A stretch of 61,795 bases of DNA, from contig CAIOYH010000124.1 of NCBI GenBank assembly GCA_903862465.1, forward strand, positions 1 to 61,795. The letters run 5' to 3'. The position numbers and the translations under genes were made by a program. Source of the DNA: an uncultured bacterium (GTDB taxonomy: Bacteria > Bacteroidota > Bacteroidia > Bacteroidales > CAIWKO01). Below are positions 1 through 26,585 of this stretch, one piece after another. The notes below the pieces were generated by a model, which saw only the letters and a program-made list of their open reading frames with translations, did no database searches and was not told the origin of the DNA. Every line of letters begins with the position of its first letter. Within the stretch, counting starts at the first letter, position 1.

Positions 1-750
1 ATCAAATAAAGTAGGCTTATTGCCAAGGTCAGTATAGCTGCCACTAGTGGCTACGGTTGCCAAAGTAGGTTTGTTTAATAAAACACCTGTACCAGTTGCA
101 GCATTCCAATCTGTTTGAACTTGGGCAGCAGGTATGGTAGGCTGGTTGCTAAGGTCGGTATAACTACCACTTGTTGCTACGGTAGCAAAAGTTGGTTTCG
201 ACGTTATTTCTAACCATGTAGGCACGTAAGTGATAGGACGATACAATCCGGCATGATTTCCCCAACCATACGCCGTATTCCAGTTAGTGATATTTGGTGA
301 TGTTATTCCGTAAGATGGACTGTCAGTCCAAAGCGGGTCAGTTTCTGTGTAACTTGTAAGATACCCTGCTGAGGCATGATTGCCCCACCCATAAGCAGTG
401 TTCCAATAAGCAATATTGCTGCTTGTAATGCCGTAAGCTGATGAAGCCGTAAAAACCGGATCGCTTTCCGCACCGCCATATATTTTAACCCATAGTGCAC
501 CATTATAATAATAGTATCCCGCGGGCGCTCCTGTTTGATACACCAAAAGTCCGGTAGCCGGCTCGGTTACGTTGGCTGTTAACGTAACGCGCGGAGGTAG
601 GAAGCCTTTGGTTGAAGATTTAACATCCAACATAGCGCTGCCATCGGGCGAAGAACCATCGTTGTTGATACCCACACTTTGGGCAAAGCTTGGCATACTT
701 CCTACGGTAAAAAATGCCAAAAGTAAAAGGAAAGTAATTTGTTTTTTCAT
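1..750 (-). CDS. Secreted tail-fibre-like repeat protein, 5' part only (runs off left edge; absent from ORF track)
   Basis: ATG at 750 (minus). Read manually as MKKQITFLLLLAFFTVGSMPSFAQSVGINNDGSSPDGSAMLDVKSSTKGFLPPRV..., then two ETDP..WNTAYGWGNHA repeats and two ATVATSGSYTDL.N.PT repeats. No stop before position 1. Signal peptide ends at SFA-Q. Confidence 0.85.
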   Translation of the reverse strand, partial: MKKQITFLLLLAFFTVGSMPSFAQSVGINNDGSSPDGSAMLDVKSSTKGFLPPRVTLTANVTEPATGLLVYQTGAPAGYYYYNGALWVKIYGGAESDPVFTASSAYGITSSNIAYWNTAYGWGNHASAGYLTSYTETDPLWTDSPSYGITSPNITNWNTAYGWGNHAGLYRPITYVPTWLEITSKPTFATVATSGSYTDLSNQPTIPAAQVQTDWNAATGTGVLLNKPTLATVATSGSYTDLGNKPTLFD

Positions 751-824
751 ACAAATAAAGTATTTTAAAGTTCCTACTCTGAAGGCTTTTCGGATACCGC
801 CCCCGACAATAACCTTGTCGGGAC
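751..824 (-). promoter_or_regulatory. Conserved 5' leader (candidate structured cis-regulatory RNA), copy 1
   Basis: 784..824 matches 23446..23486 at 38/41 nt. Both copies also share AGAGTAGGAA and AATACTTTATTTGT immediately before the ATG. Confidence 0.6.
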
Positions 825-904
825 AAGCCCCAATGAAAGATGCCTGTATGGGTCAGGTTTGTTTTTTTAGGTGGTTATGCTCGTCCACGTCGATGTATTT
901 AAAA

Positions 905-953
905 GCTCATCCGACGACTTTGTTTCTTTTTGGGAGTCTGTCGTCGGATGAGT
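905..953 (-). terminator. Intrinsic terminator-like hairpin after the 243-aa gene, copy 1
   Basis: Arms CTCATCCGACGAC / GTCGTCGGATGAG followed by TTTT on the minus strand, 7 nt after the stop. Same arms occur at 23623..23659. Confidence 0.65.
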
Positions 954-3123: not shown

Positions 3124-4995
3124 TTATGCTTCATCATTGGATTTGTTCGTGGATTCCAGATTAGTTTTTCGAAAATCAACAGGATTCATTCCGGTGTATT
3201 TTTTAAAAGAGACATAAAATGCTGAGCGGGAATTAAAACCGCAATTTTCCATAATTTCATCAACGCTTAATGTTTTGTAATTAGCTTCAGTGAGCATGCG
3301 ACAGGATTCCTTAATCCGAAGTTGGTTGATATATTGATTAAAATTGCTCCTATGCTGCTCACGAATCAAAGCCGACACGTAGGTATGATTGGTGCGGAGC
3401 AAGCTTGCCAAATCGTCCAAACTAAAATTTTTCCTTAGATACGGTTTTTCATCCTGCATAATTTTCCCCAAATCGAAAATTAATTGTTGACGCACCTCTT
3501 CTGCTATAATTTTCTTTTCTGCTTGTCCCGCGTCTTTCATAAGCGACTGCCGAATTTTGTGTGTCACACCCTTATAGGCATCACGCAATTTTTGAAAACG
3601 CTTATACAAAAGAAATAAAGCTAAAAGAATGACCAACGAAATGATAGACACGAACCAAATTATTTGGTTTTTATGCTGTATGACATCGTTTTGAACTGCT
3701 TTTTTTTCGTTCAAATCCTGTATCGCTTGTTCGGATGCCACAGAGGAAATAAGTATTTGACTTTCGATAAAATCTAGGGAGGCTTTTTGTTTGATAATGC
3801 TATCGCGCAATAGCTGACCGAGCAAAGCATATTTGGTTTCGAGCAATGCGACATGCCTTTTCCCAAAAACAGAAGTAAGCGTATCGCAGAACGTTTTATA
3901 TACATACATGTCGTTTAATTTCGAAACCAATTGTATGGCTGTGTCGGCATTACGGGTACTTTCCTGCAAATCGCCGTTTCTATAATATAGGGCTAAGTTC
4001 AAAAACACATTGGCTTGCAACTCCTTAGTACCCGAAGCTTTAGCATACAGAGATGCGCGCGCAAAATGATAATCAGCACTGTCATTTTGTTGGAGAAGAT
4101 TAAAATATAAACCTAAATTTGTATGCGCTTTCGATTTGAATTCGTTCCATTGAAAATAATAAGTGCATTTTTTACTTGCTGCAGTCCTAAAGTTGTTTTT
4201 ATAGTAATTATTCAACACTTCTATACTTCGGTTGGCAAGGGCTTTTACGTAACGCGTGTCGCGGCAAATCACCAATACTCTCGCTATATAATTATAGCTT
4301 AGCGCTTTTCTTGGATCTGATGGATCGACAATATGCTGATTTGCATATAAAAAACACTGCAAAGCTTTGTGGTAGTAACCTTGATTTTGATACGCTAAGC
4401 CAATATTGTTAAGAGCCAAAGCCTGCGCATGAACACTTGGATTCTGTTTGCCTACTTCAAATGCGATTTGATAGAATTTGATGGCTTGCTTGAATAAATG
4501 AAAATGATAAAACACATTGCCGATGTCCACAAAAAAATAGGGATTGGAAGCATAAGGTTCGGGATTGGCAATAAAAATTTCTACAGCCTTCAAAAGACTC
4601 TTTAGCGCTTTGAGATTATCGGGTTTGTAATTTTGATAAAACTCCACAATTTCCCTATAGGTGTCTAATTTCTTCTGTGTAGCCTTCATCGAATCCTGAA
4701 AACGTATAGAGTAGAGGAGGGTTATTTCGCAAGAATCATGATTTAGAATTGAATAACGCTTAGCTACCAAAGCAATAGAATCAATACGTCGTGCTATAGC
4801 TGGATTGATTGGTTGGTCATTAGTACTATTAATTTCACCAGACTTTTTGCAAGATAAATAATACATCCATAGCAAGGGGCTTAATAATACGATAATCAAA
4901 AACAGCCTGCGAAGTTGTATTAACTTCCTTTGGCTTTCCTTCTCTAGGATGTCAACTGTAGAGTCAACTTCGTCGTTCAAAATATCGGTACTCAT
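3124..4995 (-). CDS. Membrane-anchored TPR-containing AraC-family transcriptional regulator
   Basis: N-terminal TM, TPR motifs (ALALNNIGLAYQNQGYYHKALQCF), second TM (IIWFVSIISLVILLALFLLY), C-terminal AraC HTH (GFNSRSAFYVSFKKYTGMNP). Confidence 0.9.
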   Translation of the reverse strand: MSTDILNDEVDSTVDILEKESQRKLIQLRRLFLIIVLLSPLLWMYYLSCKKSGEINSTNDQPINPAIARRIDSIALVAKRYSILNHDSCEITLLYSIRFQDSMKATQKKLDTYREIVEFYQNYKPDNLKALKSLLKAVEIFIANPEPYASNPYFFVDIGNVFYHFHLFKQAIKFYQIAFEVGKQNPSVHAQALALNNIGLAYQNQGYYHKALQCFLYANQHIVDPSDPRKALSYNYIARVLVICRDTRYVKALANRSIEVLNNYYKNNFRTAASKKCTYYFQWNEFKSKAHTNLGLYFNLLQQNDSADYHFARASLYAKASGTKELQANVFLNLALYYRNGDLQESTRNADTAIQLVSKLNDMYVYKTFCDTLTSVFGKRHVALLETKYALLGQLLRDSIIKQKASLDFIESQILISSVASEQAIQDLNEKKAVQNDVIQHKNQIIWFVSIISLVILLALFLLYKRFQKLRDAYKGVTHKIRQSLMKDAGQAEKKIIAEEVRQQLIFDLGKIMQDEKPYLRKNFSLDDLASLLRTNHTYVSALIREQHRSNFNQYINQLRIKESCRMLTEANYKTLSVDEIMENCGFNSRSAFYVSFKKYTGMNPVDFRKTNLESTNKSNDEA

Positions 4996-6317: not shown

Positions 6318-9300
6318 TTATTCCCAACTCACCTTCACATTCTTAGTAGCAAGTGAAGTCTTCACTTTAACCAAATAGATAGCTGAAGATAAATTCAAGG
6401 TCGCGCTAAACACATTGCTACTGTTTGGAGTGGCTTTGAAAACACAAGCACCCGTGAGTGTAAACACTTCCACTTCTTGAATTTCTTCACCTGTCTGAGC
6501 GATGATGTTCAGCTTTTGACTCGTTTCAAACACATTGAAATTGGATGCAGTCAATGGAGCATTGCTGTTGTTGAATCGGATGAAGAATCTTCCGTTAACT
6601 TCGTCTGCTAGGAATTCAAAACTATAGGATGAATTCTCCGACAAATTAGTTATTTTACCTTTCAAACGGTCTTCAAGATACACAGGAAGGCTGCTCTCTA
6701 AATCGAAGGCGGTAATCTTAGCTTTGTCGCCGGCGTTACCCATTATCGTAAGCGGAATAATAGTGTTGATATCATTGATGGTGTTGATAACTAGTTTTTC
6801 ACCGGAAGCTGCTAATGAAAACATGCCAACGGGCAATCCATCGAACATTTTTTCTGAATCGTAGTCCTCGTAGGTAAGCTTTGCATCAGGGTTTTTACAA
6901 ATCACCATTTCGTCCATACCCATTTCGGTTTCTGTTTTTAGGCGCACAAGGATTTCTGTATTGTTGGATTCTTTATAGAAAGTACTAGTGCTATGTGTGC
7001 GAGCAGAAAGAGGTAGTGTGATTTTAGGGTTCGTGTAAATTGCTCGAACAAAGAATCCCTGTAGAGGAGCAATGTATGGTTTTGTGCTAGCAGGAACACC
7101 AACTCCATTAGCCGAATTATAGACTGAGAAATAGGATGTGTTAGTTACGGGAGGTCCAATAACAGCAGGGTTCCAATAATACAAGCTTGTGGATAAATTT
7201 GTTTTGCCTAGAGCATTCCAATACAAATAGGATGGGAAAGGATTTGCTAACAGGTTCCAACTTTGAGTTGCGGCGGTGCCATTATAAGTCAAAGGAATAG
7301 AGTAATCGCAAGGAGCAGCTAAACCATTGAAGAGATTACCGCTTAAAGATGCCGTTACAGTAGTACTTGGACAAACGGCATATCCAACCGTAGGTTGTAA
7401 GAAATACAATGGTGAAGTTACATTTGCCAACCAATTGGTTCCATTGGTGTAAGGTTTTAATTGCACTGTGCCAACCCCAGTATTAATGTTAGAAAGTGTG
7501 GCTCCCATACTTTGTTGGAATGGAGAACCAAACAGATGCCATGCATTGCTAAGTACTCTCTTTGCCGTTGCAGGTAAATTCGTGGTGTTTTGAATAAACG
7601 AAGCTCCTGATGCAATAACTATACCGGAAACTCCTGCATTGTTAACAATAGAACCTAACACGGAAACTTTACTTCCGCTTGCCAACGTTAGCGTATGACC
7701 AGCGTTTATGACAATATTATTCATGCTGCCGCTTATAGAGATTCCATACGTGTGATTACTATTATTAAACGTTATAGTATTATCAATGTTTAGCGGTACT
7801 GTTGTTAGCGTGATAATTTGATTGTCAATAGATGGATCAAAGTTGATAGTTCCATTATTACAGACATGATTAATGGCATATCTTAATGAACCAATGCCAT
7901 TGTTAAGTGTGTTGGTTACAGTATATGTTGGATTGCAAACAAAGATTTCAAGTGTGCCATTGTTATAAGTGATAGCATAATTGCTTGAGGTCTGTCCGCT
8001 TGGCGTGATTGTATAAAAACCAAGACTTGTTGCTGTTATGGCAGTGCCACTAAATGTCAACGAGCCTCCCAATGAAGTATAGGTATCCCCAAGAACGAAA
8101 CCACTATAGCTTACAGTATATCCTGTATAAACTGTGCCATCATAATTCTTAAATTTATCGTCAGCCGTTATGCTTAAAGGCTTAGGATTAACGATCAAAC
8201 AAAATACATTTGAATATACAGAGACACAACCATCATTTTTCACTACGGCTCTGTAAGACCAAGAACCTGCAGCAGTAGGATATTCAGAATACGTAGCACT
8301 AGTATTTGCAATAGTTGTCCAATTGCCGGAATTTAGCTTTTTCTCCCAATTTAAGATAGAACCAACATAAGAACTAAGCGTTAATGTTCCAGTTGAACCA
8401 CCATAGGTAATAGGACTTGATCCGGAGATACTTCCACCAATTGAAGCCGAACTTACGGTAAATGCCCCTGAAATTGCACTTGTTACATCCGAACCACAAC
8501 TACTGTGAACAACACAATAATAATACAATGTGCCGACAGTTGCTGTTGATGGTATATAAGAATTGGTTTGCGCACCATTAGCCGAACCTAATGAAGTTCC
8601 TCCATTATTGCTAGCAACGGTATTTTTATACCATTGATACGTTATTGTACCTGTTCCGCTTGCCATAACAATTATAGGGGTAAAGGATCCATTAAAACAT
8701 TGTGCTTGTGATGCTGTGGACTGACTATTGATTGTCGTAGCAGGATTCACAGTAAATGCTCCTGATATCTGACTAGTTACGTCATTTCCACAATCTCCAT
8801 GCACCACACAATAATAATACAATGTGCCGACAGTAGTAGCCGATGGAGTGTAACTATTGGAATTTGCCCCAACAACATTGCCACCAGATGTAATTTGATC
8901 AGCTTTGCTGAACCAATGATATACTAAATTAGTTCCTGTAGCTGCGATGCTTATCGCTGTAAATGATTCGCCAAAACACTTTGTTTGAGTTGTGGTGGAT
9001 TGGCTTGTAATACTCGGATTAATACACGATGGTATAATTACGGTTATAGCTAACCTGCTGCTTTCACATCCATTTATTGTCTGGCTAGCATAGTAAGTAG
9101 TTCCATCTATTAAAACATCCGAGGATAAAAGAAGATCGCCACCAGTCGAAGCATTATACCACTTGATATCCGTGCCAGTAACTGATATATCAGATATCTT
9201 TGAAGTGGGAATCAATGTTTGAGGAGTCGTTCCACTTGGAGGTGAAGGTATAGGATTCACCGTAAGGTTTATCGTGTTGGAAGTCTCTTGGATTCCTGAA

Positions 9301-12300
9301 ACACAAGCTGCGTTTGAAGTCATTATACAATACACACTTTCGGATGCCCCATTGTATTGAAAAGAAGCCGAATGTTCCGATTGCGGGACACCGCCAACAT
9401 ACCAATTATACATAGGAGCCAAACCTCCATTCGTTGGAGTTGCAGTAAAAGTAATATTGTCATTCTGGCATACTGAAGTGAATGGGGTTGAGATGCTTAC
9501 TCCAACAACAAGTGCGGCAGGTGCTGTAATGATTACATTCCCTGAGGAAGTTAATCCATCAACATCTGTAACAGTAACAGAGTAGCTTCCTGCAACTGCT
9601 GCAATTGAATTGACATTATATCCATTACTCCATAAATATGAATAAGGTGCTTGACCTCCCGAAGACACAGTTACTGTGGCAACTCCATCAGCAGAACTAT
9701 GGCATAAAGCAGGAGTTGTGGTAAAAGCCAAATTTAAGTTTGCTCCAATATCCAGACTGAATTCGTTATCTGTTATATTGTATTCCATAGGATTTCCGTC
9801 ACTGATTCGTCCAATTAAAGTAGTTCTTGTATCAACAACGGTCCAAGGGATTGAAATGGGAATACTTTCGTCAACATCAAGCGAGATGAATTGCTGTCCA
9901 ACCAATACTTCATTGCCTTGGTTATCTAAATAATATACTCTATAGGTGGCATCACAAATTTCATAACCAATATTTTGGATAGTAGCATCAATAGATATTT
10001 GAGCACCATCAGGGGGAAGGCTATTGCTTACGCTATGAGCAATAAAAACTAAATTGGGTGCTTTGCCTACTATTACTGCACGAGTTGCTTCGTTATTCAG
10101 TTCGTCATTTTCCGAAATTTGGTTATCGTGATCAATAAAAGTTCTAATGATATGAATACCACGGATATTTGAAGACCAAGGAGTAACTAAATGAATCGTA
10201 TTGAATGTTCCTTGCATTAATCCCGGAACAATTTGTTCCTCTAATGGAGTATTGTCCACCTGAGTAAATAGTTTGATATCTTGAGTGCTCGACATACCAA
10301 TATTCTCATACGTAATATCAATATCAATTGGCACATTCAAATCAGGATTCAATAAAGAAGGCGCAATATACTGCGACAAAACCCTATACTCCGGCTTGTC
10401 GCTAACCAAAACTTCAACAATAAGTTCATTATTAAAATCATCACATTCGATATAGGCATTATGAGGATCTGCTATCATCTTCACCTGATAGGTGCCGTTA
10501 CTTTGAAATGCATATTGCGGAGCGCCTTCTAATCTAAATGGACAGCTACAGACCGTGGTGCCGCAAAAGGTTTGTGCTGTAGCATCCGGCAAAGCTCCCC
10601 ATGCAGGGTAGATACCTCCCACCTTAGGACCTCTTACATAAAAATGAACATCTAAATTTGAGGCTTTATATATACCTAAATTATTTACACCAACATCTAA
10701 TGTAACAGGTGTGTTTTTTATTTGAGTATAATTCCAAAAGGCTCCATTTCCGCAAAGATCCGTTAAATAGAAATCCCAACACAACGAAGCTGTTGCAACA
10801 TTGTTGAATTCGTTTGATTCATCAATGTCACCTTGAGGATCGACTGGATCAATAGTAACAGTTAAAACTTTATTACCAAAAGCAGGAGTAGGAACTGTAA
10901 TTTGAATTTGTCGAGATTGACCGATTAATAAGCCAAGCTGATTGGAAATAGTAGGATTTCCATCCACCATGAATTCTACATCAAATGGTCCTGAATCTTC
11001 TAAACCAATGTTCGCTACTGTTGCAGAAATAATAATATCTCCTGCTGGAGGACCACCCACAATAGGATCAACAGGATTAACTATTAAATTAGAGCAACCA
11101 TAAACTGTTAAGTCTGGTTTACATGCAATCAATGTCGTGGTAACGGTTACAGCATTGTTTAATTCGCTAATCTCAGCAACCACTCCCCCAAGTGGTAATG
11201 GAGGTAAACAATCAGCATGAAATTCAAAAGAATAATTTCCAGGATCATGATGTTGGTTCCAAGGGAAAGTTACGGAAGTGCACGTAAGTGCAGGTATATT
11301 ATTAACCAAGACATTTGGCAAGTGTATAACTGCCCCACCAAGAGGAGTAATATCTAAACTACAAGCGAAATTACCTCCAACAGGACCAGTAGCAACCCCA
11401 CCTTGATTATCAAGCCAAAATGTGATACTGTTGAATTGACATTCATAATATGGACTTCCAAGATTTCCGGAAGCTATAATATCAGGTAGAGTGGGATGAA
11501 CCATTATGCACACGGAGTTGTTATTATTTCCTTCGGAACATTCATCTATTTCACTATCAAAATCCACTGTTGTAGAAAAGTACGTTCCACCTAAATTAAT
11601 AAAGGTCATGGCAGGTATGATTATATTAAACGAAGCCCCAGGTGCCAAAGCGGGAATAGGATAATTACCGCTAGGATTTGGATTACCATCGGGAGATTGT
11701 ATATGCAATTCAGATGCCAAACTAGCTCCAAGACCTTGATTCGTTACGGTTACTGAGCCTGCTAATGCTTGCCCTTGCAGAATATTTATGCAATTGTTCC
11801 CATGGCAATTTCCGGGAGTAACCGTTTGAGTTCCTAAATCTATAGTAGCAACTAAATCCGGTAGCAAGCAAGGAGGTGGTGCAATAATTTCAAAAGAAGT
11901 AGAAACATCCCCATCCAACGTAAAATCTGTAATATGCACATTCACATGATAAATTCCAACTGGAAAGGGTGCATAAATACCGAAACAATAATTACCTAAG
12001 GAATTGGAATAGGTACTTCCTGTTTGTCCGGTTTCTACAACAGTGTAAGTTACCGTTGCTCCAGCGCAAGAAGGATCCAACAGCACAACAGAAGTACCTA
12101 CATACCACGCACTGCCGCATACATTAATCGTAGAGTTAGAATATGCAACAGGAGGTGTAGCAGTAGCTGTGATTTCTATATGTCCTGGTAAAACAAAATT
12201 CCCATTAATAAACGGACGAATCGCTTGATTGTCCAATTCATTAGGCTCTACTAAAGCATTGTTACAGTCAATTATTACCTGCATCGGACACCACGCCGGT

Positions 12301-15300
12301 TGGTCTGGAGTTTGAATGTCCCAGGAAACTGTTGTTGAACTATACGCCGCTATTTGAGCAATAGGTTTAGGATCCGGAAGAATAACAACATCTGGAGCAA
12401 ATTGATTTACCAGGCGAACTTCAAAATTATTTGCAGGGCTTCCTGAATAGTTATGAATAACGGCACTAACTGTGATATGGTCACCGGGGTTAGGATGCGA
12501 GTTGGAGAACGTTATATCATTTGCAAAGATGGAAACATCAGCTGCTGTAAGCACGTCAGGTTCTGCTTCCGGTCCTAATACCACCGAGAAGTTACCATCA
12601 TCAACTGCTGTTATGGAAGTTTTCCACTGGTTCGACTCAGGAAGAGAGGAAGCTATATAGTAATAATCTTTCCCATTTGAGACATCTACATCTAGCGGAT
12701 CTATCTCCATCATAAAATATAATCTATCGTTCGCATCTGAAGTTGCTGGATTTCCATCAAAATCTAGTTTAAGTCGGGGATAGGTTGCTGCCGGTAAATC
12801 ACCATCTGCGTCTGTATATCGAACTTCAAAACGATACTCATCATTAGGAGTGCCATTTGCTGGACTTACTACATGATTCACAAATCCAATATTATTGGTA
12901 TAGTTTAAGGTTGGAGGATGATTGAGTGGCGGGTCAATTGCTTTTTCGGGCGAACAGTCTGAGGTATTACAGCTACCTTCTGCTCGTACATAATAAGTTG
13001 TGTTTGTTACCGGATTAACATTAATGGAAGTTCCTACATCCACAAATACCCCTATTTCTCCACACGCACCGAAATACCATTTATAGGAAGCTCCTGTGCC
13101 AAGAGATCCACCGACAACGGTAAGAGTTGTAGGAACACCTATCCACACAGATGCTGTTCCGCTGATAGATATAGGAGCTATAGACAATGTATTTACTGTT
13201 ACTGTTGCGCTAGCACAAGAAGAAGTATTACACGTTCCTTCTGCACGAACATAATACGTGGTATTAACTGCGGGATTAACATCAATTGTTGCTCCTGTTT
13301 CTACAAATGTGCCACCACAGCTTCCTGAATACCAATGCCAAGAAGCATCCGTTCCAAGTGAGCCTCCTACAATTGAAAGTGTTGTATGTTCGCCTGCACA
13401 AATTGTAGTGGTGCCGCCAAACGAGGTTGGAGCAACAGATATCTCGTTTACTGTAATGTCAACATTTGCGCATGCTGTGGTGTTACAAGCATTTTCTGCT
13501 CTTATGTAATATGTTCTGGAACTTGATGGACTCAGCGTAGCAGATGGTCCAATAGCTACTAGTGCGCCTCCACAATTGGTTTCATACCAATGCCAAGAAG
13601 CCCCTGCTCCGAGGCTGCCATCAGCAACCGAGAGCATAGTGGAAGTTCCGTTACATATAACAGCCGTTCCGTTAATACTGGTTGGAACAGTGGAGGGAGT
13701 GTGTATTGTAGCAGTTACATCTAATAGATTGCTACTTTCGCAACCATCCACAGTTTGACTTGCATAATAATGTGTGCCACTGACCAAAGCACTGCTTCCT
13801 ACTAATAGATTTCCTGCACTTGAAGCATCATACCATTTTACATCGGTGCCGATTGCTGCTAAACTTGCAACAGTAGGCGATGCTGTTGAACAGAACGATT
13901 GAGCTGCCGTTCCCGTTGGAGCGGCTGTTGTGTTTACAGTGGCTGTTACCCCTAATCTGTCTGAACTTTCGCAACTATATAGAGTCTGGCTTGCATAATA
14001 CCGAGTGCCATGCACTAAAACTGTAGAAGTGGCTAATGCACTTCCTCCGCTTTCATAAGCATACCATTGAATTGTGGTTCCCGTTGCTGCTAAATTAGCG
14101 ACGGTAGCACCTGAACAAAATGTTTGTGCTGCAATTCCTGTTGGAGCATCCGGTGTTATATTAACCGTAGCAGCCACTGTTAACCTTGTTGAACTTTCGC
14201 AACCGGCTACAGTTTGCGTTGCATAATAATTGCTTCCGGAATATAATGGAAATGTGCCCGAACATGTTGATTGACCGAATGGAGTAGAATACCATTTGAT
14301 ATTACTACCTGATACCACTAAATCTGCTACCTTAGGAGAATTCCCTGAGCAGAAAGATTGAGGTGATGAACCTGTTGGAGCATCAGGAGTGGAATTAACT
14401 ACAAACGCTCCCGAAATCAAACTCGTTTGTGGACTGCCGCAATCGCCTGTAACGACACAATAATAATATAAGGTGCCTATATCAATTGCTTGTGGTGTAT
14501 AACTATTTGTTTGTGCTCCATTTTCATAATCAAGTGATGTTCCTCCGCTATTGCTTTCAATGGTATTACTATACCATTGATACGACAAATTCGTTCCGGT
14601 GGCAATTACGCTAATTGCAGAACAAGTTTCTCCAACGCAGTATGAATGTGATGCGGTTGATTGGTTGGTTATTGAAGTTACAGGATTCACAATAAATGCC
14701 CCCGAAACCTCGCTGACAACTGTTCCACAGGAACCTGTAACACCACAATAATAATATAAGGTACCTTCTGTGGTGGCTTCCGGAGTATAACTTTCTGTTT
14801 GTGCTCCGTTATCTGAACCCAAAGAGATTCCTCCGCTATTACTTGCCACAGTATTTTTATACCATTGATACGTTAAGGTGCCGGTTCCGCTTGCTGTAAC
14901 ACTTATAGGTGTAAAGGTTCCATTGATGCATTGCGTTTGCGTGGCTGTTGATTGGCTACTTATGTATATTGTACATTGTTTTAAAACCGATACTGTGCTA
15001 CTGAATCTATCAGCTACCGTCAAATCTGGTTTTCCATCCCCATCTATATCTCCAATACAAACTGAATAAGGATAAGTGCCTGTAGTAAAATCCGCTTTGC
15101 TTGCAAAACTAACTGAACCTGAAGTGGAGGTGTTTCGTAATATAGAAACAGTGTTACTACCAGAATTAGGGACAGCCAAATCTGGTTTTCCATCCCCATC
15201 TATATCTCCTATACAAACTGTATAAGGAGTAGAGCCTGTTGTAAAATCTACTTTACTCGCAAAACTGACTGAACCAGAAGATGATGTGTTACGTAATACA

Positions 15301-18300
15301 GATAGCGTATTGCTGGAAATGTTTGGCACAGCCAAATCTGGTTTGCCATCCCCATCTATATCTCCAATTCTTAACGTTCCGGGTCCAATACCAGTTGTGA
15401 AATCAACTTTTGCAGATAAACTAATTGCACCTAAGGTGGAAGTGTTGCGAAATACCGATACCGTATTGCTGCTATAATTATTAACCGCCAAATCTGGTTT
15501 GCCATCTCCATCTATATCACCGATACTTGCTGAAAACGGAACGGAGCCTGTCGTGAAATCTATTTTAGTTGCAAAACTAATTGTTCCTAGAGAGGAAGTA
15601 TTACATAAAACAGATACAGTGTTACTTCCGGTATTAGCTACAACCAAATCGGGTTTACCGTCACCATTTAGGTCACCAATATTTATTGTTTCAGGCAAGC
15701 TGCCAGTTGTAAAATCTACATTAGTTGCAAAACTAATACTTCCAGGAGTGGATGTATTGAGATAAACAGATACTTTGCTACTATTATTAATAGCAACCGC
15801 CAAATCGGGTTTGCCATCGCCATCTAAATCTCCAATACTTACAGAAGAAGGACCTGAACCCGTTGTAAAATTTACGTTGTAGGCAAAACTAAGATTCCCT
15901 GAAATGGACATGTTGCGAAATACCCATATCATATTGTTACCATAATTAGCTACCACCAAATCAGATTTTCCATCACCATCTATATCTCCAATACTCACTG
16001 AAGGATCATAGCCTCCTGTAGAAAATTGTTCTTTTGCAAAAGCAATATTTCCTGCTAAAGTAACAATAAATGGGCTTGCCGAATATGCCGTTAAATTCAA
16101 TGCCAAATTGGTAACAGAGATATATTGATAGGTAACTCCCACAGGTACCGTTACTGTTAAACTAGTAGAGGTAGCTTCCGTCACCATGGCTTGAGTTGCG
16201 CCAAAGAACACAATGTTTTGTGCGACTGTAGTATTAAAATTAGTACCCGTAATGGTAACACTACTCCCAATAGCACCACTAGCGGGGGTGAAGTAGGTGA
16301 TGGTAGGGGGTGGAGGATTTACAAAAAATGCACCTGAAATAGCACTTGTAACATCAGCACCACAATCACTATGAACAACGCAGTAGTAATATAGCGTACC
16401 GATGGTTGTAGCTAGAGGCGTGTAGGTGTTTGAATTTGTTCCTATAACAATTCCTCCCGAGGTATTTGCAGATGTATTGCTGAACCATTGATAACTTAAC
16501 GTCCCCGAGCCGTTAGCAGCTATGCTTATAGATGTAAATGTACCATTGATGTATTGTGTTTGGGTGGCTGTGGATTGACTAGTAATAGTTGTGGCTGGAT
16601 TCACAACAAATGCACCTGATACAGTACTTGTTGCTGTTCCGCAAGAGCCCGTTACCATACAATAATAAAATAATGTTCCGGCAACAGTCGTTGATGGGGT
16701 GTAGGTATTGGAGTTTGCTCCAACAGCAGTTCCGCCTGAAGTACTTGCCACAGTATTTTTATACCATTGATACGTTAAAGTGCCGATTCCGCTTGCTGTA
16801 ACACTTATAGGCGTAAAGGTTCCATGAATGCATTGTGTTTGTCCTTCTGTTGATTGGCTACCGATACTAGTAACAGCATTAACGGCTACACTCACAGTAT
16901 TGCTTGATGCACATCCGGTACTAGTAGCGGTAGAGGTTACTGTATAAGTTGTATTTGCCACCGGTAAGGCATATACCGTAGTAGTAGAACTGCCAATATA
17001 AGGTAAAGTAGCACCAACATTAGTGAATAAACCTGTTTGTGGTGACCATGTGGTTTGAGCAGGACCAATTCCAGTAATACTTACATTATCAATACCCCAA
17101 AAAAACCTCCAAACTCCATCATATTTAAAGCGAATATATACAATAGATTGATTTAGAAATGGAGCTGTTAAAGCAATATTTGCATTAACGAAATCACTTA
17201 CTGCACCTTGAGTAGAGTTGTAGGTTTGCAAAGAAGTCCATGTTGTACCACTTAATGAAACTTCAACCTTTCCGGTAGAGGAAGCTGTTGTAGGTTCGTA
17301 AAAATAATGCCAAAAACTTATATTCACCTGCGTGAACCCAACTGTGCTAATTGATGGAGATTGTAGTATGGTTGCAGTAGTACCGCCAGTACCTTGTACA
17401 TCACTATTTGACATGTAAAATTTTGAATTATCATTACTATGCCAAGTTCCATAAGTAGTATAAACATAAGCATCCGGTTCTAATGTCCATGCTGCTAATG
17501 CGGGAGTTCCATTTGTTGAATTATTAAGTTTTGTCCAATTATTAGTTCCACCATTAAAGGTTTCACTTAATATTGTTACTCCACTAATTGTTCCTCCGCT
17601 TGCCGTTAATAATTGAGTATTACCACCCGGACAAACTGTTGCACTTGAAGGAGTAACAGTAATTGCCGAAGGCGTTTGATTAACAACAACACTAATAGAA
17701 CTTACTAAAGAAACACATCCATCTAAGATAGCCGAAATTGAATAGGTGCCACTTGCAGCAATTGTTGCAGCAGGAATCGTTGGGCTTAGACTTGATGATG
17801 TAAATCCGTCAGGTCCTGTCCAACTAAATGTACTGCCAATATCATTTGTACCTATAAGATTTAATGTCGAACCCGCACATATCGGCGAATTGCTTGAAGC
17901 ACTTATTGTCGGGACAGGCTTTACCGTTAGTGCCGCTGCATCACTCGTCACAGGCAATCCACAATCAGCACTCATTACTACGGAGTAATCACCCGCATCT
18001 AATGCTGTTACATTATTTAATGTCAGAGATGCTGTGGCAGCACTTGGATTTGCTATCGGGTCAATAGGAATAGTATTTTTCTGCCAAGTATAAATCAAAT
18101 TTGGTCCACTTGCGGCAACAATAAATGTTGCAGTTTGTCCCAGACATTTTATAGCAGGAGCAGGTTGTGTTATAATGCTTGCTTCCAAAACAGCGGCAAC
18201 TGTTGTGCTAGCTGTAGCCACACATCCATAATCGTTTTGTGCTGTAACGGTGTACTCGGTATTTACAATTTGAGACACATTGGTGGGATTTTGCTCGGAT

Positions 18301-21300
18301 GAAGTAAATCCGGTAGGGCTTGATGTCCATGAAAAGGAACATGGATTCAATTCACCTCCTGTTATGGAAATATCATCAACAACTAATGTATGCATGTTAG
18401 CAGCAGAGTAACAATTCCAAGCAAAATAATACATACTGGTCGTCATAGGTGTGAAAGTGGGATTAGCTTGTAACCAAGAAGTATTTACAATCCCAGCACC
18501 TGTCCATAATATTGTTGTTTGAGCTGCAACCGTGGGTGCATTTCCAACTGTAACTTTAAGGTTTTCCGGATAAGAAGTTCCGAAAGGAAGAACATACCAA
18601 AAAGAAATAGTATATGTAATGCCTGCGTTTAAGTTAAAGCCTTGTGTTATTCCCCAGCAATTTGCAGCATTATTCAAATTAAACGTCAAACTCATTGATT
18701 TTGTACCACTATGGTAATTTGATGTGTTGGAAGCCCACTGATTACCCAAGCCTGCATTTATAAAAGTCCAGTTTGCTGGGGGCCACGTTTCAAAACCTTC
18801 AGAATAATTAACCAAAGATCCAGCGTTCGATGATGAATTCAAGTTAAAAGACCCTCCAACACATACTGTTGGCATACTTGCAGTGGCTGTTACATTTGTT
18901 GGTATTGGATTAACAACAACGCTCACTGTAGCCGTTGATGCACATCCACCATAAGGACCTCCGGTATAATCATTTGCAGATACGGTATAAACTGTGGTTG
19001 CAATTGGTGAGGCAGTAACAACAGCACCCGAAGAAGGTGTAGTTGTCGGTGACCATGTGTACGTATAATCCGGGTTGCTACTTGTTGCTGTTAATGTTGA
19101 AGATGTCCCTTGGCAAATTGTAGTAGGGTTGGCGGTTGCACTTAAAGTAGGTGCTGTATTTACGGTTGCTGTAACGGCACTACGCGGATTGGAACAAACG
19201 CTTTGACCTGCAAATATCATATTTGGTCTTGCAGTAGATATTGTTGCAGAAGTAGAAAGTGGACACTGTGCACTATTATCAGCCACTAAGTATGCAACAC
19301 TATTAAAAGCAGTTGTTGTTCTATTCATGACAGCATTAGCAGTATAAAAAATACCTGAGCTTGTTGCATCATTTGTAAAGCAAACTTCCACAATAATATT
19401 TGAACTACCATCCCAATAAAAAGGATTAGAAAAAGTATGCGTATTTAAACCGGCAATAGGCTGATAATTTACCGGACCAAATACTGTGGTAAATCCGGTA
19501 GTTTGTAAAGTTGCCGTAAGTATATTTAATGGAGTATTTGCTATGCTAATTGTAAATGCTTTATGTACACCTGAAGTTCCAAGACTAGCCACATCAAATT
19601 TTAAAGAAGATAAATTGCCAGCACTTAAACCAGCAGCCGATAATTCCGAACCCAAAATCAAAATATGATGTTTGCCATTTTCATCCCAATTACCATAAGG
19701 GGCAGGATAGGTTTGGGTGGTATTTTGATTTGTTGTGCTTGTTCCAATAGTGGCATTCACTTGAACACCTGTTTCTGCTGCTACATAATAGGTTGTTGTT
19801 GCATTTATTATTGGTGTGGTCCAAGGTGAGCCTGAGACGGGCAAAGGAACACCACCTGTTGCAGCAGTGTACCAATTTAACGTTCCACCTGATCCTATGG
19901 CACTAAGAGATACGGTACCTATTCCGCATCGTGAGCCTGGAGTGGTTGAAGTAATGTTATTGTTAAAGGTTATATGAATTGGGGTTGAAGTGGCGGATGT
20001 AGGTCCATTCAAACATGTAACAATACATTGATAATAAAGTGGTGCATCGGGCACTACCGTATAAATGGATGATGTTGCATCAGATATATTGCTATATGCT
20101 ATCCCATCTGTTGACGATTGCCATTGATATGAAACTCCTAATCCAGTTGTAGCATTTTGCAATGAAAGAGTAATACTTTGTCCATTGCATAGTGGATTAG
20201 CTGTTGATAGCGTGTTGCCCGGTGTTGGCGTGGCGGAACACGGCGGTTGTGGTTGCATCACCAATTGAATATTTGGACGATTATATGTTCTACTTGTTGC
20301 AGTTGGCGGTGATGCAGGATTGGGATTGGTAGTGTTGTTATAATGATATAAAGTGCGGTAATTAGCTGATGTTGAAGTATATCTCCATGATGCAGCAGTC
20401 CCGACACCTGCCACGTTCTCATCTATAGCAACCACCAAGTTTGTCCCATCCCATATATAGGGTGTGGTTAATGTTATGGTCATCCATCCGGCAGCACCCG
20501 GTAAAGCGACGGCTCCATCGTAGCACGATGTTAATGAAGCTAAAGGAACCCAACTGGTGGTTGATGCAAAAGTTGCCGTTGCAGTGTTGCATAAATAAAC
20601 AACCCAAGAGTTAGTATTCGTTAAATTACCTGATCCAGCCCAATAAAACCTAATAGTTGTTATTTGCATACCTGCTACTCCTCCACCTGCAGAAATTTCT
20701 GATGCGGTATAAATTTGCTGCGTATAATTATAAGCGTACGCGCTATAAACCGGATTGTTCGCGGTTGTGGTTGTTGCAGTGCCGATGGTAACTGTAGGAT
20801 TAGCACTAAAAGTTGTAAAAGTTCCTTGTGTGGTATATACCGTACCACCACTATTAGTAGAAAAAGCCTTAAAATAATAAACTGTGGATGTTGTTAAACC
20901 GGTAACAGGTATAGTAAAACTTCCTGTTGAATAAGGACCCGGAGTTACAGATACTTTTGTTCCGGCTCCATCGGCAAATCCGTTTGTAGTGCTCCAATAG
21001 ATACCTCTTTCCGTAACCGGTGAGCACCCGGTGGCTGTAATATTACCTCCTAAAGTTGCTGTGGTCATTCCTATGCCTTGACTTGTGGGTGTAGTGATTG
21101 TTAGTGCAGGATTGATACCGGCTCCGGTAACGGAACGATTTACAGAAGCTGCTCCACCTCCACCAACGACAATATTACCACTATAGGATTGTACAGCAGT
21201 TGGCGAAAACTTTACATATACTATTTGTGAGAATGCACCGCCTGTTTGGGGTATAGTCAAACTAGAAGAATAGGTTGTGTTATCGATAGAATATGTAAAA

Positions 21301-23411: not shown

Positions 23412-23486
23412 ACAAATAAAGTATTATTGTTTTCCTACTCTATTTGGCTTTTCGGATACTGCCCCCGACAATTGCCTTGTCGGGAC
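23412..23486 (-). promoter_or_regulatory. Conserved 5' leader (candidate structured cis-regulatory RNA), copy 2
   Basis: Near-identical to 751..824. Minus strand reads GTCCCGACAAGGCAATTGTCGGGGGCAGTATCCGAAAAGCCAAATAGAGTAGGAA. Confidence 0.6.
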
Positions 23487-23622
23487 GGACCCCGAAAACT
23501 ACCTTATCGGGAAAGGTCCCAATTTAGAATGCCTCTATTGGGAGAGGCATATAGGTCAAATCTGTTGAATGGTATCCAAGGGGCTTAAGTTGTTTCTTTT
23601 TTTCAATGTAATATCAAAGAAA

Positions 23623-23659
23623 ACTCATCCGACAACAGGAGGTTTGTCGTCGGATGAGT
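23623..23659 (-). terminator. Intrinsic terminator-like hairpin after the 243-aa gene, copy 2
   Basis: ACTCATCCGACGAC..GTTGTCGGATGAGT followed by TTTCTTT on the minus strand, 7 nt after the stop. Confidence 0.7.
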
Positions 23660-23666
23660 CGGAGCG

Positions 23667-24398
23667 CTACGCTATGGTTAGCGTAAACGGTCCGTTCCAA
23701 TCGCCAGCCAAATGCTTGTGGTGGGTGTTGGTCCAACGTACAAAATACTTCACGTCGAATCCTGCCAAACTCGGGTCAATGTTCAATTTGAATTTTGCAG
23801 TTGTAGAGGAATCATGGCAGTTTGTTTCCGAAGGAATGCTGCATGATTTCAACACTTTTTTGTCGGTAGTTTCGTCAATTTTGCGTCTGCCTTCCACCAC
23901 AGCATACGCGATTTCGACCATATTAGCAGTATCCGGAACTGCATAATGTTTTTTGTCGAAGCGCGAACGAGTGCCAAAATGAAAAATACCCAATGGAAGC
24001 ACCGTAGCGTCGGGAATGCATGGGTCGCTAATTTGTTCCGTTGGTACTGTTTTAGATGCTTTTATTCCGGTTTTGCGATTTAGTTTGTCGCGGTCATTGT
24101 CGGTCCATTTGCTGGCAGGGATGTCATTATACGTTATGCTCAACTCTGCTTGCAGCTCTTTTGTTTTTTTACGTAAACCTCTTTTTACAGCTTTGGTGCG
24201 TGCGCCCGATTCGTCGTCCCAAAGTGCTTTGTAATACAAATAGGTGTCAACCGTGTCCACATCTCCATATAGGGCTCCTAAAATCAGAAGGCGAGCCGGA
24301 CTAACGCCTAATCGTGTGGCGTTTATGGTTATATAGGGCATTGCTATAATAATATAGGTGAAGAATCCTAAAATTGTTCCTGGATATACTGATGGCAT
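23667..24398 (-). CDS. 243-aa hypothetical protein; paralog of 961..1692
   Basis: Same length as 961..1692 and aligns to it without gaps. Confidence 0.9.
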   Translation of the reverse strand: MPSVYPGTILGFFTYIIIAMPYITINATRLGVSPARLLILGALYGDVDTVDTYLYYKALWDDESGARTKAVKRGLRKKTKELQAELSITYNDIPASKWTDNDRDKLNRKTGIKASKTVPTEQISDPCIPDATVLPLGIFHFGTRSRFDKKHYAVPDTANMVEIAYAVVEGRRKIDETTDKKVLKSCSIPSETNCHDSSTTAKFKLNIDPSLAGFDVKYFVRWTNTHHKHLAGDWNGPFTLTIA

Positions 24399-24489
24399 AT
24401 TATTTAAGTATTTATTGATTATTATTTATAAATTTGAAATGATTATTGAATTTTTAAAGTATAGAAAATGATTTTTTTCTTTAATTAAT

Positions 24490-25131
24490 TCATGTAAAAC
24501 CTGAATAGGAAAATGGTTTCCCTGATTTACTGACACTGCCTATACGGTTACAATTGTTGAAACTGTGGTTGCAAAAGCAATAGGTATGTTTTAAGATGAA
24601 ACGCATAAGGTTTACAGTTTTTGAACCACGGAAAAAAGTGTAGCAACCTCGGAAAAAAGTCCGGCAACCTCGGAAAAAAGTGTAGCAACCTCGGAAATAA
24701 TTCCAGCAACCTCGGAAAAAAGTCCGGCAACCTCGGAAAAAAGTCCGGCAACCATGGTTAAAAGTGCAGCAACCATGGTTAAAAGTGCAGCAACCATGGT
24801 TAAAAATCGCAAAAATCGGCTTAAAATGCGTGTGCTTGCGTTTTATTTGTAGATAATCAGATAGATACGAAAAACAAGCAGAGATGACTGCCATGGAAGT
24901 GCTCATAATCCCCCAAAATATATGATACACTACTATGATATGTCCTACGGCATTGTTTGGCATAAAATAAAACGACGAGCACGTTTGAGCGGGTGTGGAA
25001 TGAAAAGAGTTTTTTGTAATGTGCAAGCCGGCGTTCGTGCCGAATTTGGCGCAGCCTGTTGCCATTCTCCTGTTCTTTAAGGAGACTTGAGCCGCAAAAC
25101 CAAAACAAGCGATATCGAACCAAGGTTTCAT
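24490..25131 (-). CDS. Possible heptad-repeat (RTFFRGC / CTFNHGC) protein; paralogous frame to 1784..2488; start uncertain
   Basis: Shares the FSYLSDYLQIK and KSG.P..Y.GF.* anchors. N-termini are not similar. Confidence 0.4.
   Translation of the reverse strand: MKPWFDIACFGFAAQVSLKNRRMATGCAKFGTNAGLHITKNSFHSTPAQTCSSFYFMPNNAVGHIIVVYHIFWGIMSTSMAVISACFSYLSDYLQIKRKHTHFKPIFAIFNHGCCTFNHGCCTFNHGCRTFFRGCRTFFRGCWNYFRGCYTFFRGCRTFFRGCYTFFRGSKTVNLMRFILKHTYCFCNHSFNNCNRIGSVSKSGKPFSYSGFT
24622..24810. repeat. 21-bp tandem array, 9 units of two types (GCAACCTCGGAAAAAAGTCCG x6, GCAACCATGGTTAAAAGTGCA x3)
   Basis: Directly visible 21-nt period. Confidence 0.95.
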
Positions 25132-25388: not shown

Positions 25389-26585
25389 TTAGGAAGGTAA
25401 TTTGGCGGCGTAAGCTCCTGGGGTGATGCCTTCAAATTTCTTAAAGGCGGTGAAAAAGGAATTTTTTGAGGAGAAGCCCGATTCTATGCCTAAAGCTTCG
25501 AGGGTATGTTTGCTTGTCCATTCTTTATCCATCAGCTTCTTGGCATAGTTCACGCGCCATTCATTGCAGCAATCATGGAAATGCCGCTTTTTCTCATTCT
25601 TGAAATAATAGGCAAGATGATGTATAGGTATCTGCGTGAGAATTGAAATATGAGCGATAGTGCATTTAGGATTTAAGAAAGGGCGTTGTTTGCGAACACA
25701 CGAATCTACTTTTTTTTGTATGAGTTTTAGATAGCCCGCCTCTAGAATTGCATCATGTTTTTCAGGTTCAATAGCTATAATTTCAATTTCTGTAGGGTTT
25801 GCCAACACCCTAGAGGTTGAGTTGGGCAGTTGCGGCAACCCATATAAAATGGCAGGAAATAAAAAAGGAGATATCAACAAACCTGTAATGCCTATTGCTG
25901 AAAAGACTCGTAAGGTATGGAGTGTGTTGAATAGCCTGATGTCATTATGTTGGATGGATTCTATCAGCATTAAGGTATGACTACATAGCAAAATGAACAA
26001 ACATAGCAGCAACATGACAATCCATTTAGTCATAAATTGCTGTCGCACGAAAACCGATTCTATTTTCTTTTGTTTTCGATAATGAAATAATAAAATAACC
26101 GACCAAAACAGGTAAGCCAAAATGAATAGAGAGCGGCTCAAAAAAACAATGAAAGCGGGGAAATTATGAAATTCGACGAACTGATGTGTCCACATATAGT
26201 TGGCATCTGCCACTATTTTTATAGCAATGTCCACTTTGTGTTCCCAAGGAGAAATAATATGCGTAAAAGACGCAATGAGGAAAAGCGCCATAGGAAGCAA
26301 ATGCCAAATATCCCTTCGTTTTAGATGAAAATTATCCGTCAAAATACTCCGAACGTACCAAAACAACATAGGACCTATCAGAAAAGACAGAAACCCTAAA
26401 TTTAAAAACACCACACTCACCAGAAACACCGATTTGGAATCCAACATAACATACTGCTGAAAACTACTGATGCTTATCAACAAAAAGAAAATTGCCAAAT
26501 AATTGGCAGATGTGTTTTTTCTTACATTGAAAAGCAGCAATAGTACAGACAGAAACATACCTAATATGGATAATGCTAGCAACAC
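25389..26585 (-). CDS. Polytopic membrane AraC-family transcriptional regulator
   Basis: About seven hydrophobic segments (GPMLFWYV, HLLP motifs), then an AraC HTH (GFSSKNSFFTAFKKFEGITP). GTG start. Confidence 0.9.
   Translation of the reverse strand: MLLALSILGMFLSVLLLLFNVRKNTSANYLAIFFLLISISSFQQYVMLDSKSVFLVSVVFLNLGFLSFLIGPMLFWYVRSILTDNFHLKRRDIWHLLPMALFLIASFTHIISPWEHKVDIAIKIVADANYMWTHQFVEFHNFPAFIVFLSRSLFILAYLFWSVILLFHYRKQKKIESVFVRQQFMTKWIVMLLLCLFILLCSHTLMLIESIQHNDIRLFNTLHTLRVFSAIGITGLLISPFLFPAILYGLPQLPNSTSRVLANPTEIEIIAIEPEKHDAILEAGYLKLIQKKVDSCVRKQRPFLNPKCTIAHISILTQIPIHHLAYYFKNEKKRHFHDCCNEWRVNYAKKLMDKEWTSKHTLEALGIESGFSSKNSFFTAFKKFEGITPGAYAAKLPS

Follow-up and report, generated by a model that had tools for sequence, protein, structure and literature searches.

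Two conserved leaders in the window

The 61,795-nucleotide (nt) contig CAIOYH010000124.1 of an uncultured member of the Bacteroidales (assembly GCA_903862465.1), analysed over its whole length and referred to here as the window, carries two similar intergenic elements on its minus strand, each preceding a protein-coding gene that runs in the same direction. Both of these leaders are instances of DUF805b RNA, a motif already catalogued in Rfam (RF02914). Copy 1, with its leader at 751–824, occupies the gap between the open reading frames (ORFs) 1–750(−) and 961–1692(−), and copy 2 the gap between ORFs 6318–23411(−) and 23667–24398(−). The cores, with their scores against RF02914 and against our own covariance model R1 (described below), and the genes behind them are as follows:

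771–803, minus strand: copy 1, DUF805b RNA core (RF02914 35.8 bits; R1 39.6 bits)
23432–23465, minus strand: copy 2, DUF805b RNA core (RF02914 34.9 bits; R1 33.6 bits, E 1.6e-6)
1–750, minus strand: gene downstream of copy 1, running off the window; signal-peptide-like N-terminus
6318–23411, minus strand: gene downstream of copy 2, encoding a surface-adhesin-like protein of 5697 amino acids (aa) with SprB repeat, MBG_2, Ig_7 (CHU_C-associated) and Big_10 matches

In our alignment of the two leaders (A4), the stretch GTCCCGACAAGG..ATTGTCGGGGGC.GTATCCGAAAAGCC matches at 38/41 nt, and two of the three differences fall in the hairpin loop. The string AGAGTAGGAA is the same in both copies, as are the 19 nt leading into the start codon, AATACTTTATTTGTATGAA, where there is no mismatch. 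The alignment also takes in a third leader copy from elsewhere in this genome (contig C54, locus L012). The first-pass annotation of this DNA had reported the same core identity, quoting the sequence strings correctly, and had placed it well above that of the neighbouring protein paralogs; this is confirmed, the upstream 243-aa paralogs of the two modules being 60% identical as proteins. It had also called the downstream genes and the flanking DNA unrelated. The first part stands, as the two downstream proteins are unrelated (best E 0.95). The second is only partly right, since the upstream terminator-like hairpin and some other intergenic blocks also align between the modules. The 250 aa of the copy 1 downstream gene that lie within the window have no Pfam match.

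The whole-window Rfam scan at gathering thresholds gives a single match, RF02914, to copy 1, which scores 35.8 bits (gathering score 35.6) over model positions 1–35 of 35. Copy 2 was picked up in a permissive scan of its leader (a 401-base search), again at full length (1–35) and 0.7 bits below the gathering score; every conserved base and both helices are present. The local-search RF02914 E-values are 1.1e-8 for the leader of copy 1 and 2.4e-8 for that of copy 2, far beyond what chance would give, and DUF805b is the sole significant family on either: with cmscan run up to E 10, both leaders otherwise give only chance-level microRNA, snoRNA and sRNA families, and no riboswitch family. None of 14 control genomes has a match over the RF02914 cut-off. 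The statement in the first-pass annotation that the leader could not be assigned to an Rfam family is therefore wrong, because RF02914 matches both copies.

RF02914 is filed in Rfam as type Cis-reg, in clan CL00115. The family is thus already catalogued, and the leaders are not new in kind. The motif is said to originate from the 2017 screen of 224 candidate RNAs by Weinberg et al. The string “DUF805” is absent from the main text of that paper (PMC5737381), its supplement apart, and, with the supplement of the discovery paper likewise apart, we found no functional study of DUF805b RNA in the literature; the one paper listed under the name “DUF805b” deals with a method of alignment.

The DUF805b fold is an H-type pseudoknot

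Three data sets underlie the analysis of the fold. Alignment A1 was collected with a regular expression requiring a paired hairpin P1 on fetched loci, 49 of the 51 instances being aligned. The covariance model R1 was made from A1 and encodes P1 only. A search with R1 of the window plus 76 loci returned 93 hits, or 85 distinct rows, which form alignment A2; counts given out of 85 here and below refer to these.

Two helices covary. P1, of four base pairs (bp) closing a 12-nt loop, is 89.4% paired and shows four to six pair types per position. P2, of 3 bp, is formed between the NCC before the conserved GAAAA in the loop and the GGN after the conserved GAGUA in the tail, with 96.9% of 255 cells paired. 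Its outer pair, 14–43, is GC in 45 rows, UA in 18, CG in 10, GU in three, AU in two and another combination in seven; the inner pair, 16–41, is CG in 70, UG in 10, UA in four and another in one. The pairing or covariation score of P2 was matched in 0/500 shuffles, and slid controls were 11–49% paired. A1 agrees with A2 on the covariation of P1 and P2. P2 is not a pair in R1, nor in the nested structure that cmscan prints for RF02914, and therefore neither search selected for it. The DUF805b fold is an H-type pseudoknot, which Rfam or the discovery authors may already draw. A fourth P2 pair, between the loop base one position further 5′ and the tail base one position further 3′, was rejected, 38 of 49 sequences being unpaired there.

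Both window copies have this fold, and P2 is UCC/GGA in each. In copy 1, P1 pairs G801 G800 C799 with G786 C785 C784, optionally extended by G802–U783, around the 12-nt loop 798–787; P2 pairs U794 C793 C792 with G774 G773 A772, and is flanked by the strongly conserved GAAAA (791–787) and AGAGUA (780–775). In copy 2, P1 pairs G23463 G23462 C23461 with G23448 C23447 C23446, and P2 pairs U23456 C23455 C23454 with G23435 G23434 A23433. Written out, the hairpin with its loop ending in CCGAAAA is GGGC / GGUAUCCGAAAA / GCC(U) in copy 1 and GGC / AGUAUCCGAAAA / GCC in copy 2. The single-stranded 3′ tail with AGAGUAGG is present in both, each carrying AGAGUAGGAA.

The bulged-G (sarcin-ricin or loop-E) consensus has AGUA opposite GAA, with a Watson–Crick pair closing the A-G end. 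In DUF805b, CC-GAA faces AGUA-GG, and the CC/GG pairs are the ones that covary. GAGUA is invariant in the 85 distinct sequences; GAAAA varies in two, L044 (C for G) and one L014 site (last A), so that the GAA next to P2 varies once, in L044. From these sequences we infer that GAA and AGUA would form a loop-E or bulged-G extension of the pseudoknot.

The first-pass annotation had suspected a structured RNA leader. Covariation in both helices bears this out, and the UCC/GGA helix it had proposed is real, namely the covarying P2. Its suggestion of a loop-E motif fits the sequence, the geometry being a prediction.

The element keeps a fixed distance to the start codon

In 82 of the 85 distinct hits, an ATG-led ORF on the same strand starts no more than 60 nt away. 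Counted from the final base of the pseudoknot, the ATG lies 19–22 nt away in 46/82. A gap of 46–52 nt occurs in seven of the 82, six of which are the first unit of a tandem pair, the seventh being L051, where the first ATG opens merely an 8-codon frame. The spacers in the window are as follows:

751–771, minus strand: 21-nt A/U-rich spacer of copy 1, after A772; start codon 750–748
23412–23432, minus strand: 21-nt spacer of copy 2, after A23433 and ahead of the 5697-aa gene; AUG at 23411–23409

Pairing between tail and spacer is no greater than with shuffled spacers in 75 leaders (mean z 0.04, 2/75 below −2); on this test we rejected an alternative helix that would, as a general trait, pair the tail with the start region. 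No terminator was found between element and AUG in the scans. TAnnTTTG is the consensus of the Bacteroidota −7 promoter box; exact occurrences within 150 nt upstream were found in 19/85, at distances scattered from 6 to 140 nt. A fixed-distance promoter was rejected, as neither a sigma-70-type scan nor the TAnnTTTG search shows one. With the spacing to the AUG fixed, the promoter boxes scattered and no terminator found in the scans, it is the start codon to which the element is coupled, rather than a promoter or a transcript's 5′ end.

These results touch several ideas of the first-pass annotation. Orientation-independent occurrence, which it had named as a sign of a REP-like DNA repeat, is not what we see: orientation dependence is strict (82/85 with a co-oriented ATG-led ORF), and the element is therefore not a repeat of that kind. 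An antitermination or attenuation leader is disfavoured by the roughly 21 nt of unstructured A/U-rich spacer and by the lack of a terminator in the scans, and a classical riboswitch platform by the lack of general alternative pairing with the start region.

Copy 2 alone can form an 11-bp alternative helix, between CAAAUAGAGUA (23436–23446) and UACUUUAUUUG (23413–23423) on the minus strand. Such a helix would hide positions −2 to −12, in competition with the loop-E strand and the pseudoknot tail; its fold z-score is −4.4, and the duplex has a z of −2.0 relative to shuffled spacers. This helix is not a family trait.

Tandem double units were seen on contigs C35 (12568–14255) and C51 (16997–18001) and at loci L005, L006 and L014. 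The second unit comes directly after the first and is divergent (GCGG...GAAAAGCG-AAUGAGUAGGU), with its own loop–tail pairing and the usual distance to the AUG. In these clusters, each successive gene is preceded by a tandem DUF805b pair.

Genes behind the element and their distribution

Among the ORFs behind the element, 69 of 82 end within 1.6 kb; their median length is 172 aa, and 32 have at most 150 aa. Pfam searches with 42 and 30 downstream proteins show a diverse cargo: subtilase, papain-like and astacin peptidases; outer-membrane beta-barrels, an OmpA-family protein, a protein with a type IX secretion system (T9SS) sorting tail, lipoproteins and giant adhesins; YceI, TerB, a rhodopsin and small zinc-ribbon proteins; and many proteins without a family. 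The domain that gives the RNA its name is found downstream in 0/42 and 1/30 proteins (1/72), and neither gene in the window is DUF805. With genes so varied, and for the most part so short, behind it, the element is not confined to long ones, and the description of the leader as one “for very long genes” falls; the giant 5697-aa gene is atypical of genes behind DUF805b.

At locus L059, in a genome of the same class, a DUF805b element (1120–1160) lies ahead of a bacteriorhodopsin-family gene (1178–1924; Pfam E 5e-45). At L047 (genome G029, contig C12), paralogous genes for outer-membrane beta-barrels stand three in a row, with one DUF805b leader apiece.

The window's own genome (4.2 Mb in 230 contigs) has 24 RF02914 matches at E ≤ 1, with 20 below 1e-3 and nine over the cut-off. 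Related genomes have a match in 35 of 41 cases (E ≤ 0.001), and an even sample of the phylum in 45 of 151 (E ≤ 1e-4), most of these belonging to the same class as the window. The CoaBC protein of the window has its closest relatives in uncultured Bacteroidales assemblies.

The element also occurs in viruses. A 14-base pattern was found in more than 119 stretches of viral contigs, and 80 of these loci were tested with the full model, giving 31 model hits in 29 of them, and hence in at least 29 contigs; the remaining 51 of the 80 do not match the full model and were set aside as chance matches to the pattern. The viral matches have the same AUG spacing and the same outer-pair covariation as the bacterial copies. 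One to three copies each are present in five viral records, of which two have terminal repeats, before genes of 56–151 aa; out of six viral downstream proteins compared with PHROG, one belongs to a protease family and five are without a match.

An accessory 5′ hairpin

The leaders in the window have a further hairpin, P0, which adjoins P1 directly and is not in the Rfam model:

802–822, minus strand: P0 hairpin of copy 1, CCCGACAA-GGUUA-UUGUCGGG (read from the sequence; RNAfold)
23464–23484, minus strand: P0 hairpin of copy 2, CCCGACAA-GGCAA-UUGUCGGG (alignment; RNAfold)
23491–23511, minus strand: second, degenerate P0-like hairpin 5′ of copy 2, CCCGAUAA-GGUAG-UUUUCGGG (paired in the RNAfold minimum-free-energy structure)

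The tandem arrangement of P0 at copy 2 is found in the same form in one relative, L294. BLAST searches with the leader return P0, or other stems at the same place, mainly in the window's genus, where 26 leaders keep a hairpin with differing stems, such as CCUAAA/UUUAGG, CCCAAU/AUUGGG and CUCACU/AGUGGG. In these 26 leaders, 89.1% of the P0 cells are paired against 80.1% in shuffles, with compensatory changes in three of the six pairs, figures that come from close kin and from a structure derived from the same alignment. The CCCGACAA/UUGUCGGG hairpin, with which the first-pass annotation had opened its description of the element, is a genus-level addition lying outside the DUF805b family.

Palindromes of the form CCCGACA...TGTCGGG are also scattered in the genome away from DUF805b (for example on contigs C21, C23, C27, C28 and C29), several of them with short ttggaatttggatcttgg-type tandem repeats behind them. 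They resemble a REP-like repeat family sharing its stem sequence with P0. P0 may be a general palindromic insert rather than a working part of the leader.

The surrounding modules

Each leader belongs to a larger module whose order is regulator, repeat array, 243-aa gene of no known family, terminator-like hairpin, leader and adhesin-like gene. The modules start with AraC/HTH_18 regulator genes at 3124–4995 and 25389–26585 (both on the minus strand), one of which also has TPR repeats. In each module an array of 21-bp tandem repeats, at 1993–2211 (10.4 copies) and 24624–24795 (8.2 copies), lies between the AraC-type regulator gene and that for the 243-aa protein, with differing units; the ORFs 1784–2488 and 24490–25131 (minus strand) that run over the arrays translate into low-complexity repeats and are probably not genes. 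The arrangement suggests that a regulatory cassette for surface proteins has been duplicated. Further intergenic features of the modules are:

906–952, minus strand: copy 1 module, terminator-like hairpin with a U-run, behind the upstream 243-aa gene (alignment)
23622–23660, minus strand: homologue of the 906–952 terminator-like hairpin, copy 2 module (alignment and terminator scan)
861–888, minus strand: GUGGA-N-ACCAC followed by CUAAAAAAAC, upstream of copy 1 only

The terminator scan caught the hairpin of copy 2 only, the loop of the copy 1 hairpin exceeding the length that the scan allows. The 861–888 feature is related to a block repeated elsewhere in the genome, in which GTGGAGTTCAGAGACCAC is followed by TTTAAAAAAC. 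This block, a 4-bp stem with a 10-nt loop, has about 11 occurrences in the genome, including those on contigs C6, C48, C53, C63, C75, C95, C176, C187 and C209, and is found in relatives as well. It sits 5′ of start codons, whether or not a DUF805b element comes after it, and might represent either a site close to the promoter or another hairpin of the leader. A 136-aa TTG-led ORF on the plus strand (572–982), overlapping copy 1, was taken as spurious because copy 2 has no counterpart to it.

Proposed function

We put the probability that the element acts at the level of translation at roughly 0.5. The pseudoknot would then be a docking or enhancer module, independent of a Shine-Dalgarno sequence, for the 30S subunit or a 30S-bound factor, with the compact knot positioned just outside the mRNA exit channel of the initiating 30S subunit. 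Either the ribosome or a trans-acting protein would recognise the knot, and this recognition would set the translation level of the downstream gene. We suppose the effect to be enhancement, not repression, because the module is portable, because it is found on viral accessory genes and on envelope genes, assumed to be abundantly expressed, and because the mRNAs of the phylum largely do without Shine-Dalgarno sequences; passages of one study, in which this motif is not mentioned, describe flavobacterial mRNAs lacking them (PMC9723704). A more specific and distinctly more speculative form of this proposal makes DUF805b a portable, Shine-Dalgarno-independent “mini-IRES” (miniature internal ribosome entry site) with a loop-E, about 20 nt before start codons, driving or gating envelope and accessory genes. 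Its users, just as tentatively, might be Bacteroidota and their phages, the giant gliding-type adhesins of the window among them.

A number of points weigh against a role in translation. That the motif is transcribed within the mRNA, and where the 5′ ends lie, is assumed from the sequence, and the direction of the effect (enhancer or repressor) as well as the recognising partner are things we purely infer; a look-up of RNA-seq evidence over 22400–24600 listed none. The 3′ end of the element is about 21 nt from the AUG, too distant for a classical contact of the Shine-Dalgarno kind. No complementarity argument to rRNA was found, the genome's own 5S rRNA sharing only the AGUA string; mimicry of loop E of this 5S rRNA (contig C211) was dropped, as AGUA is shared and the AGAGUAGG/CCGAAAA pair is not. 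The score of copy 2 is 0.7 bits under the curated Rfam cut-off, and its 11-bp alternative helix before the AUG would suit a switch. Tandem units and about 10 strongly conserved bases are equally expected of a regulator that senses a ligand or a protein. Finally, the comparison of signal-peptide-like N-termini, found in 46/82 downstream proteins against 26.5% of crude genome ORFs, was made with a crude heuristic on pooled related genomes.

One alternative is a riboswitch-like sensor, in which the H-type pseudoknot would bind a metabolite or second messenger, in the manner of aptamers of preQ1-I size, and thereby change downstream translation. The compact pseudoknot with its 10 or so strongly conserved bases beside covarying helices would fit, as would the cis-regulatory class in Rfam, the tandem pairs in six of 82 leaders (as in some riboswitches) and the alternative helix of copy 2, which would occlude −2 to −12; a heterogeneous cargo of surface and accessory genes would also suit a signalling molecule. 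We nevertheless regard a sensor as unlikely, since spacers are unstructured (mean z 0.04, 2/75 below −2) and offer no general expression platform, scans show no terminator between element and AUG, the downstream gene set is metabolically incoherent, cmscan up to E 10 finds no riboswitch family in either leader, and the viral copies precede small genes mostly without an assigned function. An element for mRNA stability or processing, blocking 5′-to-3′ decay or decay that depends on the 5′ end, or marking an endonuclease site, and so stabilising the downstream cistron or releasing it from a polycistronic transcript, seems quite unlikely to us. Pseudoknots can resist exonucleases, each gene has a copy of its own in the clusters on C35, C51 and C85 and in the three beta-barrel paralogs of L047, and there is no fixed-distance promoter, so that many copies may lie inside longer transcripts; a stabiliser, however, needs neither some 10 near-invariant bases nor a spacing of 19–22 nt to the AUG.

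Two further explanations are very improbable. A DNA-level element (promoter, operator or REP-like palindromic repeat) could claim the intergenic, multi-copy occurrence, the resemblance of the P0 stem to the scattered CCCGACA...TGTCGGG palindromes and the AraC-type regulator gene upstream in each module. Compensatory changes that keep two helices, one of them a pseudoknot, however, mark a folded single strand and not a protein-binding duplex, and the strict orientation dependence (82/85) and the lack of a fixed promoter in the sigma-70-type scan and TAnnTTTG search also speak against it. Processive antitermination, as a leader for very long genes, fares no better: it draws on the 17-kb gene behind copy 2, whereas short genes dominate behind the element (median 172 aa in 69 ORFs, 32 of at most 150 aa), viral copies lie ahead of genes of 56–151 aa, and spacing is fixed to the AUG and not to a promoter.

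The two copies in the window add nothing new in kind, and the interest lies in the function of the DUF805b family. If DUF805b is a translation-initiation module, as we favour, it would explain the expression of an envelope, secreted and mobile gene set in Bacteroidota, and engineers of these bacteria would gain a compact part for expression. For the annotation of the window, the element shows where the two adhesin-like genes truly start and that each is a translation unit of its own.

Comparison with known systems

The leaders agree with DUF805b RF02914 in the 4-bp hairpin, the 12-nt loop ending in CCGAAAA, the tail with AGAGUAGG and the position upstream of Bacteroidota genes. They differ in that the genes in the window are adhesin-like and not DUF805, and in the P0 hairpin added in this genus. 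With the sarcin-ricin or loop-E motif they share AGUA opposite GAA and a Watson–Crick helix at the A-G end, here the covarying CC/GG of P2. Here, however, the motif would join the loop of a hairpin to a 3′ tail within a pseudoknot rather than occupy an internal loop, and the non-canonical pairs are predicted.

Aptamers of the preQ1-I type are H-type pseudoknots of about 34 nt. DUF805b resembles them in size and topology, a short hairpin being joined by an A-rich linker to a 3′ tail that pairs with the loop, and in its location in a 5′ leader. There is no similarity in sequence or model (no riboswitch family at E up to 10), the 3′ strand of P2 stays clear of any ribosome-binding site, and no coherent ligand-related regulon is seen. 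Finally, translational operator or enhancer pseudoknots such as that of the rpsO leader are autoregulatory for a single gene and include the ribosome-binding site. The likeness lies in a 5′-leader pseudoknot placed relative to the start codon and in action on the 30S platform, which DUF805b would share. Unlike them, DUF805b is portable and multi-copy, its 3′ end lies 21 nt short of the AUG, and the mRNAs of its phylum, going by the passages of PMC9723704 on flavobacteria, largely do without Shine-Dalgarno sequences.

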